Source: Vampirovibrionales bacterium (GTDB lineage Bacteria > Cyanobacteriota > Vampirovibrionia > Vampirovibrionales > JAJTHC01). From it: 54,566 nucleotides of DNA. Shown here one piece after another: positions 6,267-52,738 of the stretch. A program made the translations under genes and the position numbers. The DNA lies in the NCBI GenBank assembly GCA_044347425.1, contig JBIKUS010000001.1:1-54566 (forward strand). Direction: 5' to 3'. Positions within the stretch are counted from its first letter, which is position 1. Each line of letters opens with the position of its first letter. The notes below the pieces were generated by a model, which ran no database searches, had not been told where the DNA came from, and was given only the letters and a program-made list of their open reading frames with translations.

Positions 6267-7787
6267 TTATACCATGTTGATAATGGTGCGATACATTTCG
6301 TCGAGCGATTTAATCACCTTTGAGGCCGCCTCGTACATGCGTTGGTAGCGCATCAGGTCAATGGCTTCTTCGTCCATATTCACGCCCGACACACTGCTAC
6401 GGCGAGCATCCAACTCGTCTAACAAATTGGTTTGGTTGGTGGCTCTGTCTTGGTACGATCGGGCATTCGTCCCCAGGCGTGCCACCACGGTTTGATGAAA
6501 CTGCTCAAAGCTCTGGTTGTTAATACCCGCCATAGCGGTGTAGCGCAAGCCTGCCATGGCCAAGGCGTTACGATTGTCGCCACCACCGCTAAAGCCACCT
6601 GTGACGCTACTGTCGTTAGCGGCTAAGGCCAAGCGTTGCGGAGCATCCACCAAGTTGGGGTTAAGCTCCATGTGTAACAGGGTAGGCCCCGTACCAGGGT
6701 ACGAGCTTTTAAGGCTAAAGATGGTAGAGGCGGCGCCAGTGTTGTGCAGGTTGCCGTCCAAGTCTCGGCCGCTGGCTTGTAGGGTGTTAAACGATGAGGT
6801 AAGACTGCTAAACAGGGCGTTAATATCGTCAAACACCGCCATGACAGATTTAACCGTGGGGTTGTTGCCCGCAATATCCAAAATGCCCTTTAGCTGGCCA
6901 CTGGTAATGGTGTCAGTAATATCCACGGCACTGTTGCTGGTGGTAAGGCGTGCAGGTACACCAGCGGCGTTAGCCTCGGTGCTGACCGTAAGTGTTAGCT
7001 CGTTGAGTAGGAGTTTGCCCCGCACCAGCTCTTGTCCGCCCAACGACACCCGAACGAGGTTGTTGGGCAAATCTTCCACAATAATATCGGCCGAGAGCGA
7101 GAGTTCTTCGAGCAATTGGGCGCGACGGTCCAGCAAATCGTTAGGGCTACCTGCCGATGCGGTAACAGCGCTAATGTTGTTGTTTAAATCGGCCAGGTTC
7201 TGGAGTTTGGTGTTAAAGTCGGCCACGGCAATGCCCAACTGGCTGGCGTTAAGGGTATCTTGCTGGCCTTGCACCCCTACCAAGTTGCCGTGTAGCTGTA
7301 GCAGTTGTCGCCCCTGCTGCTGAAAGAGGTACATCATATCGTTGGCTTGTTGCAAAAACGCCGAGCGTGAGGCGAGATTTTCGGGTTGGTTGGCCATGTC
7401 TTGCACAGCATCAAACAACTGCTGAATACTGGTAGCTAGCCCCTGATCGCTGGGTTCGCCCACAATGTCTTCAACCTGAGTCATGGTTTTGTTGACGAAT
7501 TCAAACTCGCCCGCTTTACTTTGTTCGTAGCGAAACTGATTGTCTAAAAAGCCGTCTCGTACTCGGCTCACCGCATCTAGCTGTACGCCTTGGCCAAACT
7601 GGTAAATCAAGCCCGACGCTGGCGCAGGGGGCTGGTAAGGATCGGCCTGCGACAACTCAAGCCGTTGCTTGGTGTAGCCCGCCGTATTGGCGTTAGCAAT
7701 GTTGTGGTTCACCACAGTCATACCCGCTTGGGCGGCCATAAGGCTACGCTGGGCAGTATGCAACCCCATAAAACTGGGCATATACAT
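6267..7787 (-). CDS. flgK: flagellar hook-associated protein 1
   Basis: MPSFMGLHTAQRSLMAAQAGMTVVNHNIANANTAGYTKQ is the canonical FlgK N-terminus. C-terminal MDEEAIDLMRYQRMYEAASKV motif present. Confidence 0.9.
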   Translation of the reverse strand: MYMPSFMGLHTAQRSLMAAQAGMTVVNHNIANANTAGYTKQRLELSQADPYQPPAPASGLIYQFGQGVQLDAVSRVRDGFLDNQFRYEQSKAGEFEFVNKTMTQVEDIVGEPSDQGLATSIQQLFDAVQDMANQPENLASRSAFLQQANDMMYLFQQQGRQLLQLHGNLVGVQGQQDTLNASQLGIAVADFNTKLQNLADLNNNISAVTASAGSPNDLLDRRAQLLEELSLSADIIVEDLPNNLVRVSLGGQELVRGKLLLNELTLTVSTEANAAGVPARLTTSNSAVDITDTITSGQLKGILDIAGNNPTVKSVMAVFDDINALFSSLTSSFNTLQASGRDLDGNLHNTGAASTIFSLKSSYPGTGPTLLHMELNPNLVDAPQRLALAANDSSVTGGFSGGGDNRNALAMAGLRYTAMAGINNQSFEQFHQTVVARLGTNARSYQDRATNQTNLLDELDARRSSVSGVNMDEEAIDLMRYQRMYEAASKVIKSLDEMYRTIINMV

Positions 7788-7790
7788 GGG

Positions 7791-7832
7791 CTAACTCTCT
7801 CTCTTGATAACTCTCTTGATAACTCTCTTGAT
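7791..7832. repeat. about 3.5 tandem copies of a 12-mer (CTCTCTTGATAA) in the flgK 5' region
   Basis: Perfect units at 7799-7810 and 7811-7822, partial units on both sides. Starts 4 nt from the flgK ATG. Confidence 0.85.
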
Positions 7833-42063: not shown

Positions 42064-43680
42064 TTACATCCCAAATTTACGGCGTACCATGCCTAGCACT
42101 TGCGTAGCGTGACTGAGCCTTAGCACCACACTCATCCCCGCATAACTGGCCACGCCTAGGGTAAAGGCGGTTAGCATCCCTACCCATCCTTGGCCTAACC
42201 CTGCGGGGCTGCACCACCACGCCCACAACAGGCCAGCAGGTAGGCAAGCTAAGGCCATACGGCCAGCCTCCACCCCCAACGCCCCAAAGGGGATAACCGT
42301 GGTATGACGACGCACCAACAGCATCAGCCAGCCCAAGTTAATAAGCGTGACCAGCGTAATGGAGGCTGTAATGCCCCCAACCCCTAAGTTGAGCCATACG
42401 CCCCCTACCAGCAAGGTATTGAGCAACCACTTAACGCCAATCGCACTTACCCCCACCAGCAATGGCGTTTTAGAATCGTTATAGGCATAAAAGACTCGGG
42501 TTAGGGTGTCTCGTAAAAAGTAGGGGAGCATACTGGCGAGTTGAAACCACACCGCCCACGCTACCATGGCCGTATGTTCAGGCTTAAAGCTGCCATGCTC
42601 AAACACCAACCGTATCACGGGTTCCACCCAAAAAAAGGCGAAAATCATGATCGGCATGGTCACCCACCACAACGCCCCTACGCCTTGCTGTACCAATCGG
42701 CCTAGCTCTTCGGGTTGTTGTCGCTCTACCGCCTCAGCCAGCCGAGGGAATAACGGCACCAGTAGGGCGGTTTGCAGCACGCCAATGGGTAGTTGCATCA
42801 GGCGGTTGGCCAAAGTGACGGCCGACCAGCCGCCTTCGGGTAAGTGGTGCGTAAAGCCCATATCCACAAAGGTAAGGGCTTGGCCAATCGTCGTCCCCAC
42901 CATAGCGGGGAAGAGTAAGCCCATCATGGCGTTAAATTCGGGCGAGCGCACCTGCGAGAGGGTGGGACGAAGGGTAAAGCCGTGCTTAAAATAGTCGGGT
43001 AGTTGTAAGGCCACTTGCAACACCCCGCCCACCAACGTACCCATGGCCAGCAGTAAACCCGCATCATCAGCGGGGAAGGCCAACAGACCCACAATCATGG
43101 CAATGCTCAGCATGGTGGGCGACAGAGCCGAGGAGGTAAACGCTTGTCTCACATTCAGCGCACCGTAAAAAATACCCACCAAACTGCCCAACCACACCAG
43201 CGGAGCCATAATGCGCAGTTGCGCAGCCGTTGCGGCCACGAGTGCGGGGTTGGCCTGCTCGCCCCCTAGCAACAGTTGAGACAGGGGCAAGGCCAACCAA
43301 AAAACGATACCCGCCAACACCATAAACACACCACTGGTAACGGTGGTGAGGGTAGCCGCCAAGGCCGTGGCTTGGGCTTGCCCCGCATCGGCTTGCTCTG
43401 GCGAAAAACGAGCAATAACCTTAGACAAGGCCGCCACCGTGGCCGTGTGAAAGGGCCCCCCAAGGCCACCTAACAACACAATGGAGGCTTGGGGCAATTG
43501 CACCGCAGCAAAGTAAGCATCTGTGGCAAGTGATGCACCGTACACGGTGACAATCAGCCAATCTCGGGCAAAGCCAAGCAGTTTACTTACCAACAGCAAC
43601 AAAGCCATCCACCCAACGGCTTTAGCTAAAGAGCCTTGAGCGGGCTTAGGCTTAGCCACGGTGACTGCTACGTCGCTCAT
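42064..43680 (-). CDS. murJ: lipid II flippase MurJ (MviN)
   Basis: SKLLGFARDWLIVTVYGASLATDAYFAA N-terminal signature and about 14 TM segments. Its start overlaps the lepB stop (ATGA). Confidence 0.9.
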   Translation of the reverse strand: MSDVAVTVAKPKPAQGSLAKAVGWMALLLLVSKLLGFARDWLIVTVYGASLATDAYFAAVQLPQASIVLLGGLGGPFHTATVAALSKVIARFSPEQADAGQAQATALAATLTTVTSGVFMVLAGIVFWLALPLSQLLLGGEQANPALVAATAAQLRIMAPLVWLGSLVGIFYGALNVRQAFTSSALSPTMLSIAMIVGLLAFPADDAGLLLAMGTLVGGVLQVALQLPDYFKHGFTLRPTLSQVRSPEFNAMMGLLFPAMVGTTIGQALTFVDMGFTHHLPEGGWSAVTLANRLMQLPIGVLQTALLVPLFPRLAEAVERQQPEELGRLVQQGVGALWWVTMPIMIFAFFWVEPVIRLVFEHGSFKPEHTAMVAWAVWFQLASMLPYFLRDTLTRVFYAYNDSKTPLLVGVSAIGVKWLLNTLLVGGVWLNLGVGGITASITLVTLINLGWLMLLVRRHTTVIPFGALGVEAGRMALACLPAGLLWAWWCSPAGLGQGWVGMLTAFTLGVASYAGMSVVLRLSHATQVLGMVRRKFGM

Positions 43681-44852
43681 TTGGGCAGGGTAGCCACGTC
43701 GGCTTGTGGCTCCAAGGTGCTAGGCGACAAGGTGAGTGTGCCGATGCGGTGGGCTGGCCATAGGCGTAGCCATGCTCGCCCCAGTACTCTGTCTTGGTGT
43801 ACCAGCCCCCAAAAGCGGCTGTCGTAGCTGTCGTTACGGTTGTCACCCATCATAAAATAATACCCCTTAGGTATTACGATAGGCCCACAGTAGCGTTTGG
43901 GCTGTTCTACGGTGCAGGTGGCGGCTATAGCATTGACGTAAGGCTCATTAACCCACTGGCCATTGCGTTTAATACCTTGGTTAGGGATGACTTGTAGTGT
44001 GTCGCCCTCTACTGCAATAAGGCGTTTAATGTAGGCCACATCCACCATCGAGTCTTTGTCGTTAACGAGGCCACTTAGCCCGCTCCACCGCAGTACACGG
44101 CTGATTGGGTCGGTGTTCAGTTGGGCAAACGGGGGGTAAAATACTAAAATGTCCCCCCGTTGGTAGGGTCGCCATAGGCGAGAGGGCTTTTCAACCAGTA
44201 CCCTGTCTTCAATTTGCAGGGCTGGCAGCATGGATTCGGAGGGGATGAGCCGGGGTTCCATTAGCCCTTGGCGTATGACGATTAAAAACAGGAGTAAAGT
44301 CAGTACAAATTCGGTCGCTTCCCACCCTACCCGTAGGCTACGGCGTAGCCACGGTTGGCGTTGCGTAGCTTGGTAGGCAGTAAGCAATTGGCTTTGGCTG
44401 GGCCACACCCCAGAGGCTAAGGGCGACAGGGCTTGCCCTTGGGCAGGTGCGCCACTGGCCAAGGCCATAACAACATGTAGTGGAGCCACTTTTACCACCG
44501 AAGGCGAAGACCCACTTGGGGCAAGGCTTTGGGCAAGCTGAGACGCTTGTTGTAAGACGGTGGGCAGCTCAGGCCAAAAAGCGGCCTCGGGGGGGGGGGG
44601 GGGGTGCTTGGGGGTAAAGCGTAGGCTCGCTGCCAGCTTGCGGGGCGAGGCTCCCGCATGGTGTAGCACCGCATCTAGCTGAGAAAAACGACGTGTATGG
44701 CGTAATAGCAACCACAACACCACCAACGTAGGTGGGTGTTGGGTATAACGTGGCCGTTGCGCTTCGGCTAGGGCATCTGCTACATCTAAGGTAAGCGGTG
44801 GCAGGGTTTCAGGGGTAGGGGGTGCTTGGCTCATCAGCTCAGTATCATACAA
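43677..44852 (-). CDS. lepB: signal peptidase I with a ~190-aa N-terminal extension (an alternative internal start at 44468 would give a standard-length LepB)
   Basis: IPSESMLPAL (catalytic Ser box), YIKRLIAVEGD (Lys box) and YFMMGDNRNDSYDSRFWG box. Confidence 0.8.
   Translation of the reverse strand: MYDTELMSQAPPTPETLPPLTLDVADALAEAQRPRYTQHPPTLVVLWLLLRHTRRFSQLDAVLHHAGASPRKLAASLRFTPKHPPPPPEAAFWPELPTVLQQASQLAQSLAPSGSSPSVVKVAPLHVVMALASGAPAQGQALSPLASGVWPSQSQLLTAYQATQRQPWLRRSLRVGWEATEFVLTLLLFLIVIRQGLMEPRLIPSESMLPALQIEDRVLVEKPSRLWRPYQRGDILVFYPPFAQLNTDPISRVLRWSGLSGLVNDKDSMVDVAYIKRLIAVEGDTLQVIPNQGIKRNGQWVNEPYVNAIAATCTVEQPKRYCGPIVIPKGYYFMMGDNRNDSYDSRFWGLVHQDRVLGRAWLRLWPAHRIGTLTLSPSTLEPQADVATLPK
44589..44604. 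repeat. 16-nt homopolymer (G16 on plus, C16 in the coding sense) inside the lepB N-terminal extension
   Basis: Counted directly. Encodes the PPPPP in ...TPKHPPPPPEAAF... Confidence 0.95.
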
Positions 44853-47370: not shown

Positions 47371-49128
47371 CTAGGCAGCAGCTGGCTCGGGTTCGGGCTT
47401 CACTTCTTCGGCGGGTGGAGCTTGTTCAGCAGGTGGGGCTTCGCTCGCTTCGGGGGCAGGCGTTGCTTCAGCGGCGGGGGTCTCTGCAGGAGGTGCTTCG
47501 GCCTCAGCTTTGGCTTTTTCGGCAGCAGCAGCAGCTTGCTCATTGGCAACGTCGGCTTTGGCCTGTGCTACTTCGCCTTCAACCACGGTCTCCGTCGTTT
47601 CGGCGGTATCGGTAGCACTGGCGGCTTGGGTAGCTGTGGTATCAGCGGTATCGGCTGTGCTTTTAGCTTGGTCAGCTTTAGCCTCGGCGGCTACCTCTTG
47701 CGTTGTGTCTGCGGGAGGAGGCGTGGCTTCTGTTTCTGTTGTTTCTGTCGAGGCTGCCACGGCTTCGGTAGAGGCTTCCTCATCGTCAGCCACTTCAATA
47801 AAGGTGCCATCAGTTTCTAGCGTAACCATTTGCCCACCAACGGCTACTTGGTACTTACCGTCGTCTGTGCGTTCAATCACCACGTCCTCACTATCTACGG
47901 GTGTAGGTGGTGGGGTGGGAGCAGCAGCGGCGGCATTAGCTTCGGCGGCAGCGGCCGTTGCGGCGGCAGCAGCGGCTTCAGCGGCAGCGGCAGCGGTGTT
48001 AGCACGAGCTTCGGCAGCGGCCGTTGCTGCTTTAGCGGCGGCTAAATCAGCCTCTACCTTAGACAGTCTTGCTTCAGCACTTTCAACACGTTCTTCGGTC
48101 GAAGGTTCGGCAGGCGTGTCTACTTCATCATCTGTACCCGTGGCTGGTGTAGGTGTGGTGGTGGCACCTGCATTGGTTGTATTACCAGCATCATCAGCTT
48201 CCTCGGTAGGGGCAACATCGGCCGTACCACCAGTACCATTGGCTGCACCAGCGTCATCAGCTGCGTCAGCACCATCGGTTGCCCCAGCGTCATCAGCTCC
48301 ATCGGCACCATCGGCTGCTCCAGCGTCATCAGCTCCATCGGCACCATCGGCTGCTCCAGCGTCATCAGCTCCATCAGCACTATCGGCTGCACCAGCGTCA
48401 TCAGCTGCGTCGGCACCATCGGCTGCACCAGCGTCATCAGCTCCGTCGGCACCATCGGCTGCACCAGCGTCACCTGCATTATTATTGTTGTTAGCAGCCC
48501 CCGCATTATTATTATTATTGTTGGCTCTACCAGGCGATGCCATAATAACTTGGTTGCCTAAGCCACCAGCGGCTCCTGTACCAAGCACTTGGGTACCTAA
48601 ACCGCCACCTAATTGGTTAAGGTTTAACATACCACTGTTGCCGCCGAGCATCATCAAAAAGGGCAGTAGTGGGCCAAGCATACCCAATAGTCCGCCTTGG
48701 CCACCCATGATGCCAAACATGCCGTTGGTAGTAGTACCACCAGTTAATGTGTTGCCAAAGCCAAGGCCAGTATTGCCAAGTAAGTTTCGTTCAATTTCGG
48801 CGGCACGGGTACCAAAAAAGCCCCCCGCCCCAAAACCAAAATTAGAGCCTACACCCAAGCCCAAGGGGGCATCATTAAGGGTTGTACTACCTACACCTGT
48901 GCCAAACGTACTAAATGCCTCTGGGCCAAGCGGAATGGTGGTATTAAACAGGGCTGCATTTTGCTGCACACCTAAGGGGTCAGTCGTCCCCCCTATACCC
49001 GTTGCTGGGGGCAAAAAAGCTAGCTCTTGAAAGTTGGTAGCTTGGGCGGTTGCGTTAGGTAAATTAAAGGCCTGCGCTGCTAGTGCAGGGTCAAGAGCAA
49101 ATGTGCGAAAGTCAGGAGCGAATGACAT
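47371..49128 (-). CDS. 585-aa low-complexity protein (FG/GLFG-like Gly-rich region, poly-Asn, acidic DGAD repeats, Ala-rich helix, small beta module, Pro/Ala/Glu tail)
   Basis: ATG at 49128 with AAGGTG upstream. Uninterrupted 1758-nt frame. The convergent terminator sits just past its stop. The antisense 506-aa ORF has only a TTG start. Confidence 0.6.
   Translation of the reverse strand: MSFAPDFRTFALDPALAAQAFNLPNATAQATNFQELAFLPPATGIGGTTDPLGVQQNAALFNTTIPLGPEAFSTFGTGVGSTTLNDAPLGLGVGSNFGFGAGGFFGTRAAEIERNLLGNTGLGFGNTLTGGTTTNGMFGIMGGQGGLLGMLGPLLPFLMMLGGNSGMLNLNQLGGGLGTQVLGTGAAGGLGNQVIMASPGRANNNNNNAGAANNNNNAGDAGAADGADGADDAGAADGADAADDAGAADSADGADDAGAADGADGADDAGAADGADGADDAGATDGADAADDAGAANGTGGTADVAPTEEADDAGNTTNAGATTTPTPATGTDDEVDTPAEPSTEERVESAEARLSKVEADLAAAKAATAAAEARANTAAAAAEAAAAAATAAAAEANAAAAAPTPPPTPVDSEDVVIERTDDGKYQVAVGGQMVTLETDGTFIEVADDEEASTEAVAASTETTETEATPPPADTTQEVAAEAKADQAKSTADTADTTATQAASATDTAETTETVVEGEVAQAKADVANEQAAAAAEKAKAEAEAPPAETPAAEATPAPEASEAPPAEQAPPAEEVKPEPEPAAA
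48241..48472. repeat. 36-bp tandem repeat, about 6.4 copies (coding; 12-aa unit DGADGADDAGAA on the minus strand)
   Basis: Units at 48241, 48277, 48313, 48349, 48385 and 48421, plus a partial unit. 1-4 substitutions per unit. Confidence 0.95.
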
Positions 49129-51785: not shown

Positions 51786-52417
51786 TTATTTAAACAAGTC
51801 TAAGTAGGCTACTTCACGACCAGCTATATAGTCGGGGCTAAAAGTGCCAGGTTTTATACCAGCATAACGATAATACGTTTCAATTTGGTTACCTTTATTA
51901 AACCAATAAATAACTATTTTGTTTTGATAAAGAAAATGGCCGTGGTGTACGCTGCCACCGCCATGGTTATCATAAGGTCCTAGGATCATTGCCCCACCTG
52001 TGTTGAGTTCAATGACATAAAATGTCGGCTGGTATTTACCGCAATCGGGTTGCGTATCGTTAGGTACACAGGCCAGTTTGTAGTTGAGGTTGGCTAACAA
52101 ATAGTGGTAGGTGGTCATCAATGTTGAGCTATGGTTTATAGCCCCTGTTTGCCAGCCATTGTACATTGCCTGCTGAAAGGTAGCAAAGGTATCTTTCAAT
52201 ACCGCGTTACTCTGGGTTTCTTCAATACCATAAAGCACCTTGGGGATGGTAAAAGTAGCAATTAGCCCAATGATGCTCAGCGTAACCAGCAATTCTGCTA
52301 GGGTAAAGCCCCTTTTTGGGCTATACTTTTGCTTGAGGCTTGAGGCTTGAGGCTTGAGGCTTGAGGCTTGAGGCTTGAGGCTTGAGGCTTGAGGCTTGAG
52401 GCTTGAGGCTTGATCAT
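51786..52417 (-). pseudogene. type IV pilin-like (prepilin N-methylation motif) gene whose ATG is out of frame because of an 11-copy heptanucleotide tract (phase-OFF state)
   Basis: Pilin frame reads QKYSPKRG/FTLAELLVTLSIIGLIATFTIPK plus a Cys pair (CVPNDTQPDC). The ATG at 52417 is 107 nt from the Gly codon. Confidence 0.8.
52332..52408. repeat. heptanucleotide repeat, 11 perfect copies (CTTGAGG on plus, CCTCAAG in the coding sense)
   Basis: Counted directly: units start at 52332, 52339 and so on to 52402, followed by a partial CTTGA. Confidence 0.98.
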
Positions 52418-52467
52418 AGGATAGTAAGCTCCTGTAAAATTTTTGTAAAGGCGTTTTGCATAGGGTT

Positions 52468-52613
52468 TAGGGCGTGTCACCAGTTAGGCGAAATACGATG
52501 AATTCAAGGAAAAAAGAACGGCTTTTGAGGCGTGTAGACAGAACTACATAACGAAAAAACGGCTCTTTTTGACACAGAAGACACGGATTGCAGCCAACTG
52601 ATGACACGCCCTA
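52468..52613. mobile_element. 146-bp element bounded by 18-bp imperfect inverted repeats (MITE-like, inverton-like or structured RNA)
   Basis: TAGGGCGTGTCACCAGTT (52468-85) matches the reverse complement of 52596-52613 at 17 of 18 positions. GTT flanks both ends. Confidence 0.5.
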
Positions 52614-52738
52614 GTTTGATATCGGTAAAAGTTAGCCTAACCTTAAGAGGTAAAGACAGTATCGTAACAATTATGGCCAACAATCAAGCCCTTGCTTTAT
52701 AGCCGTGCTTTGCTTTTAATACATAGGTAACCTATCCT

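Follow-up and report, generated by a model that had tools for sequence, protein, structure and literature searches.

A heptanucleotide repeat in the leader of a type IV pilin-like gene of Vampirovibrionales: a candidate translational phase switch

Results

The pilin-like gene and its genomic surroundings

The window, by which we mean the whole stretch of DNA that was analysed (54,566 nucleotides, 54.5 kb), carries on its minus strand a gene that, judged from its profile matches, is type IV pilin-like and belongs to the prepilin class (Table 1). With the repeat described below removed, its open reading frame matches PF07963 (N_methyl) with 27.7 bits (cut-off 21.2) and TIGR02532 with 29.9 bits (cut-off 16.3), which bears out the original prediction that a prepilin-type protein is encoded downstream of the repeat. 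With a profile of the pilin family, matches were obtained to the N-terminal helix in solved type IV pilins and in GspG. Structurally, the AF2 model of the protein (pLDDT 69.5) consists of a helix spanning residues 11-62, followed by six beta strands; a Foldseek comparison of this model with the PDB returned no significant neighbour (best E = 0.78).

The gene order at the locus, common to the contigs compared below, is hemA, hemC, a GATase_3 gene, tRNA-Leu, the pilin gene and ilvB. Rfam recognizes the neighbouring tRNA-Leu only, and its mir-879 match on the repeat (20.9 bits, gathering score 90) is noise. Elsewhere, the window encodes FlgK, FlgL-like, FlgJ-like and MotB proteins together with LpxK, a combination of flagellar genes and LpxK that fits a flagellated diderm of the Vampirovibrionales. 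Genes for a prepilin peptidase or for pilus assembly were not found within the 54.5-kb window. In the public annotations of the window contig (P0001, P0025), the pilin appears as a hypothetical protein of 168 aa (TTG start at 52292) or 150 aa from which the cleavage motif is missing; these annotations begin inside the mature region because of the frameshift described in the following section.

Table 1. Features of the pilin-like locus, with positions in the window.
Feature	Positions	Strand	Basis or remark
Mature pilin-like protein FTLAELLVTLSIIGLIATFTIPK...LDLFK and stop	51786..52307	-	PF07963/TIGR02532 matches, family profile, AF2 model
Hypervariable segment of the pilin globular domain	51895..52073	-	Sliding identity 0.58-0.74
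Out-of-frame product of the predicted OFF state, 39 aa	52298..52417	-	Translation
Repeat-free proximal leader QKYSPKR and Gly(-1) codon	52308..52331	-	Aligns with short basic leaders in the family (e.g. MKRG, MRRKRG)
CCTCAAG x11, slippage-prone tract	52332..52408	-	Each of the three frames encodes PQASSLK or a circular permutation of it
Prepilin ATG start	52415..52417	-	Out of the pilin frame here; opens the complete 210-aa prepilin P0002 in the 12-copy L001
Shine-Dalgarno-like AGGAG	52429..52433	-	Direct reading; 11 nt before the ATG; conserved in 4/4 alleles
146-bp MITE-like insertion	52468..52613	.	Window allele only; predicted 5' UTR; indel relative to L001, L202 and L203
Predicted FliA/sigma-28-type promoter TTAAGGTT-N11-TACCGATA	52620..52646	-	Motif scan; identical in 4/4 alleles

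An eleven-unit heptamer tract places the start codon out of the pilin frame

Eleven perfect CCTCAAG units lie between an AGGAG/ATG start and the prepilin motif G|FTLAELL, as located by regular expression. Reading along the minus strand, AGGAG and its spacer are followed by ATG, ATC AAG and the tract, which begins 9 nt past the A of the ATG; downstream of the tract come CAAAAGTATAGCCCAAAAAGG and then GGC TTT ACC CTA GCA GAA TTG. TRF reports a single array at 52331-52413 with a period of 7, 11.9 copies and 100% matches. The doubled unit, a 14-mer, occurs 11 times against 0.44 expected, a count reached in 0 of 100 shuffles, and the tract is one of three perfect simple repeats above our thresholds in the window. 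From the ATG (52417) to the Gly codon (52310) the distance is 107 nt, which puts the pilin in frame +2. The tract, the AGGAG, the ATG, the Gly codon and the 107-nt spacing, on which the original prediction had been built, were all recovered in place by TRF and regular expression.

In silico translation of the ATG frame of the window allele gives the peptide MIK(PQASSLK)3PQASSKSIAQKGALP*, whose end at 52298 had been foreseen, and the tract is free of stop codons in all three frames, again as claimed. With 10 or 13 units, translation would meet a TAG two codons past the tract. With a number of units divisible by 3 (12, 9 and so on), the ATG shares the frame of the pilin, and a change by a single unit toggles, in silico, between an intact and a truncated product.

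One claim about the frame had to be corrected. The TGA at 52416-52414 had been said to close the pilin frame, whereas it lies in the third frame; the pilin frame itself reads ...TLCKTPLQKFYRSLLSYDQASSLK... and is open as far as the TAA at 52469-52467. The accompanying claim stood: in the window, the pilin frame has no ATG, GTG or TTG ahead of TTG 52292, which itself lies downstream of the cleavage motif. The conclusion drawn from these reading frames, namely that the window allele, as sequenced with n = 11, has its pilin gene OFF, is unaffected by the misplaced TGA.

Taking the repeat out was expected to leave a basic leader of the textbook type, and the remaining core MIK...QKYSPKRG is indeed typical. 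With 12 units the leader amounts to 39 aa, compared with 5-15 aa in most family members, and is long for a class III signal peptide. Repeat-free members of the family carry basic leaders of ordinary short length, which fits the repeat as an insertion into a normal leader.

Copy number differs between closely related alleles

A protein search yielded three further metagenome contigs (L001, L202 and L203) with the same locus and with flanks that are 95-100% identical, so that four alleles, all from metagenome assemblies, could be compared (Table 2). For L202, the allele DNA was taken from a JGI contig identical to the NCBI copy.

Table 2. The four alleles of the locus, all from metagenome assemblies, with their state as predicted by translation from the ATG.
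Allele	CCTCAAG copies	Predicted state from ATG	Other feature
Window	11	OFF	146-bp MITE-like insertion
L001	12	ON	None
L202	11	OFF	Pilin C-terminus divergent
L203	11	OFF	Pilin of the window type, insertion absent

Over 8.4 kb, L001 and the window share 96-99% identity, and in the leader a single 7-nt unit is all that separates them. L001 encodes P0002, a full-length prepilin of 210 aa. Two expectations of the original prediction were realized in this comparison: copy numbers do differ among relatives, and at a count divisible by 3 an intact prepilin is encoded, the 12-copy allele reading exactly MIK(PQASSLK)4QKYSPKRG|FTLAELL. None of the four alleles departs from the others in promoter region, Shine-Dalgarno sequence, ATG, tract sequence or first ~20 mature codons; at the promoter and leader they differ solely in the unit count and in the insertion carried by the window. 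As far as the assembled sequences go, this is a copy-number polymorphism of 11 versus 12 units between near-identical strains. The 3:1 ratio of OFF to ON among the four alleles equals the expectation for drift across three frames.

When three of the alleles were aligned, sliding identity fell to 0.58-0.74 at 52073-51895 in every pairwise comparison; it was 1.00 at the leader and N-terminal helix (52373-52274) and 0.92-1.00 in most flanking 100-bp bins. Such C-terminal hypervariability fits a surface protein that is exposed and under selection, and would be the signature of a diversifying pilin domain. The C-terminal globular part is also mosaic, being 58-74% identical where the flanking genes are about 95-100% identical.

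A predicted sigma-28-type promoter and a MITE-like insertion

Upstream of the leader, ~200 nt from the Gly codon, a FliA/sigma-28-type promoter is predicted. The consensus of this class is TAAAGTTT-N11-GCCGATAA, and in our motif scan a motif of the type TAAAGTTT-N11-GCCGATA was found upstream of 26 of the 60 Vampirovibrionales pilin-like genes, the target included. Most occurrences of a stricter sigma-28 motif in the fetched loci fall upstream of pilin-like genes. A looser regular expression was not above chance in the window, the stricter motif alone being specific to pilin upstream regions. In a separate scan, two sigma-70 sites were seen, no more than in shuffles. A sigma-28-type promoter probably drives the pilin gene, and the motif matches suggest that the pilin family is co-regulated with late flagellar genes, that is, with genes of the swimming stage.

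Directly after the -10 element of this predicted promoter, the window allele carries the 146-bp insertion, which lengthens the 5' UTR and whose junction supplies the TAA at 52469-52467 that closes the pilin frame upstream. The insertion ends in terminal inverted repeats (TAGGGCGTGTCAyCAGTT..) with 30-nt arms that are 80% complementary overall and 94% complementary over the outer 18 nt. Going by the indel and these terminal repeats alone, it looks like a mobile, MITE-like element; neither the window nor the fetched loci yielded another copy. The element is possibly flanked by a TA target duplication.

Other non-triplet repeats occupy the leaders of pilin paralogues

The Vampirovibrionales, to which the uncultured host of the locus belongs, are non-photosynthetic, predatory relatives of cyanobacteria, and Vampirovibrio kills algae. 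A full set of type IV pilus genes has been reported for V. chlorellavorus, with pili mentioned merely as present (PMC4451040). In a scan of species-representative genomes, the pilin family was placed almost wholly in Vampirovibrio, Vampirovibrionales and Melainabacteria; no close orthologue was found among these genomes, the best matches being Vampirovibrio paralogues that are 39-46% identical. With over 1000 relatives and numerous paralogues per genome, the family is large and redundant; V. chlorellavorus NCIMB 11383 alone has at least 11 family loci. In two of these genomes, genes beside pilin genes share synteny and 46-50% identity with the neighbouring GATase_3 gene of the window. One 193-aa family member (P0125), 48% identical to the V. 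chlorellavorus query, is found on a 273-kb contig named Microcystis phage MaAM05, which implies either a phage-borne pilin-like gene or a mis-assigned contig.

Table 3. Repeats at pilin-like paralogues, from a survey of the DNA upstream of every G-F-T-L-A-E motif in the fetched loci. Homopolymer lengths from the V. chlorellavorus draft assembly may be inexact.
Locus	Repeat and position	Location	Frame of ATG as assembled
L124 (V. chlorellavorus NCIMB 11383)	C26, 2976-3001	Leader	Out of frame
L124 (V. chlorellavorus NCIMB 11383)	(CAGA)7, 2234-2261	Leader	In frame
L125 (V. chlorellavorus NCIMB 11383)	(AAGA)6, 2390-2413	Leader	Out of frame
L145 (V. chlorellavorus NCIMB 11383)	C9, 3705-3713	Leader	In frame
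L206 (V. chlorellavorus NCIMB 11383)	C13, about 1012-1024	Leader	In frame
L204/L205 (Logan SRA-run assemblies)	Interrupted C-tract	Leader	In frame
L137 (Vampirovibrionales MAG)	C9, 2911-2919	Spacer of sigma-28-like promoter	Not applicable

Different non-triplet repeats recur at the leader position of these paralogues (Table 3), an observation that supports the reading of the CCTCAAG tract as a switch. Across 59 pilin-like genes, we counted 7 non-triplet repeats within the 100 nt that precede the Gly codon, against 0.39 expected from the rest of 311 kb (P = 1.8e-7), an enrichment of ~18-fold at pilin leaders that counts paralogues of possibly shared ancestry. Five of the seven strongest repeats in the 311 kb lie within these 100-nt regions. 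The three poly-C leaders probably share one origin, which would perhaps leave about 4-5 independent repeat origins rather than 7. For two of these genes, no copy-number series across strains was obtained: the leaders of the (CAGA)7 orthologues are short and unrelated, and no close relative of the C26 gene turned up in the protein collection.

Proposed mechanism of the switch

We postulate, with a probability of roughly 0.8, that the locus is a simple-sequence-repeat contingency switch in the leader of a type IV pilin-like gene. Transcription would probably proceed from the sigma-28-type promoter, and ribosomes would initiate at the AGGAG/ATG and translate directly into (CCTCAAG)n. Slipped-strand mispairing during replication would add or remove units, each gain or loss shifting the downstream frame by one position because the unit is 7 nt long. 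Whenever n is divisible by 3, a prepilin with the leader MIK(PQASSLK)n/3 QKYSPKRG would result and be cut at G|F by a prepilin peptidase; at n = 11, as in the window, translation would end after 39 aa. The hydrophilic repeat peptide is hypothesized to stay in the cytoplasmic leader and to be discarded on processing, so that the mature pilin would be identical at any copy number. Both the reversible, high-frequency switching of the tract and the processing of the leader by prepilin peptidase are inferred from these sequence features, and the likely role of the switch would be to vary the surface pilins on display, for prey attachment or for phage evasion.

Alternative explanations

Four other explanations were weighed, and taken together we consider them unlikely. 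The strongest, itself improbable, takes the tract for a neutral and hypermutable microsatellite, devoid of an adaptive role in switching, within a paralogue that is dispensable, and the 11-copy alleles for broken genes heading for loss. That three of the four alleles are out of frame would also be seen in a decaying gene, but an OFF fraction of two-thirds is normal for genuine phase-variable heptamer loci, and an ON allele exists in L001. Decay would likewise suit a large and redundant family and the MITE-like insertion in the 5' UTR of the window allele; however, all four alleles retain an intact open reading frame past the tract, free of additional frameshifts or stops, and the tract is perfect in each of them. 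A neutral origin also gains from CCTCAAG tracts of 3-10 copies, which among the matches listed occur in many unrelated metagenome contigs: the matches listed in a metagenome scan with (CCTCAAG)3, at least 120, are unrelated heptamer tracts from assorted organisms, and none has pilin flanks. Against it stands the leader-specific enrichment described above, since the presence of several unit types in pilin leaders is hard to explain without selection for mutability.

Clearly less probable is a second start site. In the alleles that lack the MITE-like insertion, an ATG lies 70 codons upstream of the Gly codon and is in the pilin frame at n = 11; were it used, the gene would be ON in two of the three frames. 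Gene callers have in fact given products of 243-257 aa (P0003, P0022, P0023, P0024) for these 11-copy alleles, beginning either at this ATG or at a TTG seven codons further upstream. The resulting extension, however, crosses the predicted sigma-28 promoter, and the start would therefore be absent from that transcript. Neither the upstream ATG nor the TTG is preceded by a Shine-Dalgarno sequence, and the ~35 stop-free codons in one frame have a random chance of roughly 0.2. The window itself has ATA in place of the ATG, its MITE junction adds a stop, and no other family member has such a leader of conserved sequence. We thus regard the upstream 'leaders' of 70-77 aa called at these alleles as spurious.

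It is more improbable still that the difference between 11 and 12 units is an artefact of assembly or sequencing in a repeat of 77-84 nt and that all strains have an equal count. All of the sequences are metagenome assemblies, in which repeats near the read length can mis-assemble; yet ordinary 150-nt reads span a tract of this size, and the window, L202 and L203 agree on 11 units though they differ by the MITE-like insertion or in the variable region of the pilin, while the fourth allele gives 12. Programmed ribosomal frameshifting or transcriptional slippage that restores the frame of the 11-copy allele, considered solely as the tract is repetitive and stop-free in all frames, found no support and is hardly credible, since the tract contains neither an X XXY YYZ slippery site nor a homopolymer, no Rfam element was found, and the 12-copy allele fixes the frame in the DNA, making recoding unnecessary.

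Discussion

The mechanism proposed for the pilin-like gene is of a known type, represented by opa and neuO, and what is new is the lineage and the class of gene. In full-text literature searches, no report was found that connects Vampirovibrio or Melainabacteria with phase variation, contingency loci or pilin leaders that bear repeats.

The original prediction had pointed to the Neisseria opa genes, a likeness that we find apt, with neuO of E. coli as an even closer precedent. neuO encodes the capsule O-acetyltransferase of E. coli K1 and lies on prophage CUS-3. Its 5' coding region contains an AAGACTC heptamer repeat that leaves the gene ON at multiples of three units, and 65.6% of sequenced genomes have it in the OFF state (PMC13001214). 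The pilin locus shares with it a 7-nt unit just after the start, the rule that the gene is ON only at counts divisible by 3, the stop-free frames and the predominance of OFF sequences, which here make up three of the four alleles. Rotated to AAGCCTC, the pilin unit is one base apart from AAGACTC, which is probably coincidence. Unlike at the pilin locus, where the repeat falls in the leader and is presumably cleaved off, the repeat peptide of neuO is kept in the mature enzyme and modulates its activity; the pilin gene also differs in gene class, in lineage and in its chromosomal, non-phage context.

In Neisseria opa, CTCTT repeats lie in the signal-peptide coding region, and the copies of this multigene family switch independently. 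A non-triplet repeat within the cleaved N-terminal signal sequence of a surface protein, and a multigene family whose members switch on their own, would be common to both systems. In contrast, the opa pentamer encodes the hydrophobic core of a Sec signal peptide, whereas the pilin heptamer codes for a hydrophilic stretch inserted into a cytoplasmic leader, that of a class III (prepilin) signal peptide. Neisseria pilC, with a poly-G tract in its signal-peptide coding region, provides translational ON/OFF control of a type IV pilus component, and it is this tract that the poly-C leaders of the V. chlorellavorus paralogues most closely resemble. PilC differs in being a pilus-associated adhesin with a Sec signal and a homopolymeric repeat, not a pilin with a prepilin leader. 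Repeats in promoter spacers are found as poly-C in Bordetella fim and as TA repeats in H. influenzae hif. The C9 tract of L137, placed within the sigma-28-like promoter spacer upstream of a pilin-like gene, resembles these cases; the window tract, unlike them, lies in the coding region and would act on translation rather than transcription.

A broader proposal can be put forward more tentatively, at somewhat less than even odds: the Vampirovibrionales would possess a large set of sigma-28-driven, hypervariable pilins, many of them switched singly by homopolymer, tetramer or heptamer repeats in cleaved prepilin leaders or in promoter spacers, such that each cell displays a random subset. In swimming, attack-phase cells, this subset would serve prey recognition and attachment or phage evasion. 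Simple-repeat phase variation is mostly seen as a tool of pathogens adapted to a host, among them Neisseria, Haemophilus, Campylobacter and Mycoplasma. Here, the same logic would operate in an environmental, predatory, non-photosynthetic relative of cyanobacteria and would act on building blocks of the type IV pilus. Were the broader proposal true, it would describe the first contingency-locus system from the cyanobacterial phylum and from a predator of algae, as well as the first class III signal-peptide leader to host such a repeat.

Real switching at such loci would, moreover, have practical consequences. It would explain surface heterogeneity of Vampirovibrio-like predators without dedicated regulators, and repeat length at named loci would become a handle on the pilins used for prey attachment, with a bearing on crashes of ponds used for Chlorella production. 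For annotators it would come as a warning, as many 'truncated' or oddly extended pilin open reading frames in these genomes would be phase-OFF alleles.

Further repeats in the window

Three repeats outside the pilin-like gene were observed as well. A run of 16 G at 44589-44604 (C16 on the coding strand) lies in the N-terminal extension of an S26 signal-peptidase open reading frame (43677-44852, minus strand); it is in frame as assembled, encodes a Pro run and is possibly a second tract prone to slippage, and none of the other alleles extends over it. Immediately upstream of the FlgK gene (6267-7787, minus strand), the 12-nt unit CTCTCTTGATAA is repeated perfectly in tandem at 7799-7832, in 2.8 copies. 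Finally, a 36-nt in-frame tandem repeat at 48235-48472 falls within an open reading frame (47371-49128, minus strand) for an Ala/Asp/Gly-rich protein of 585 aa that has no Pfam match; its orthologue in L001 has two extra 36-nt units (609 aa) and is otherwise identical.
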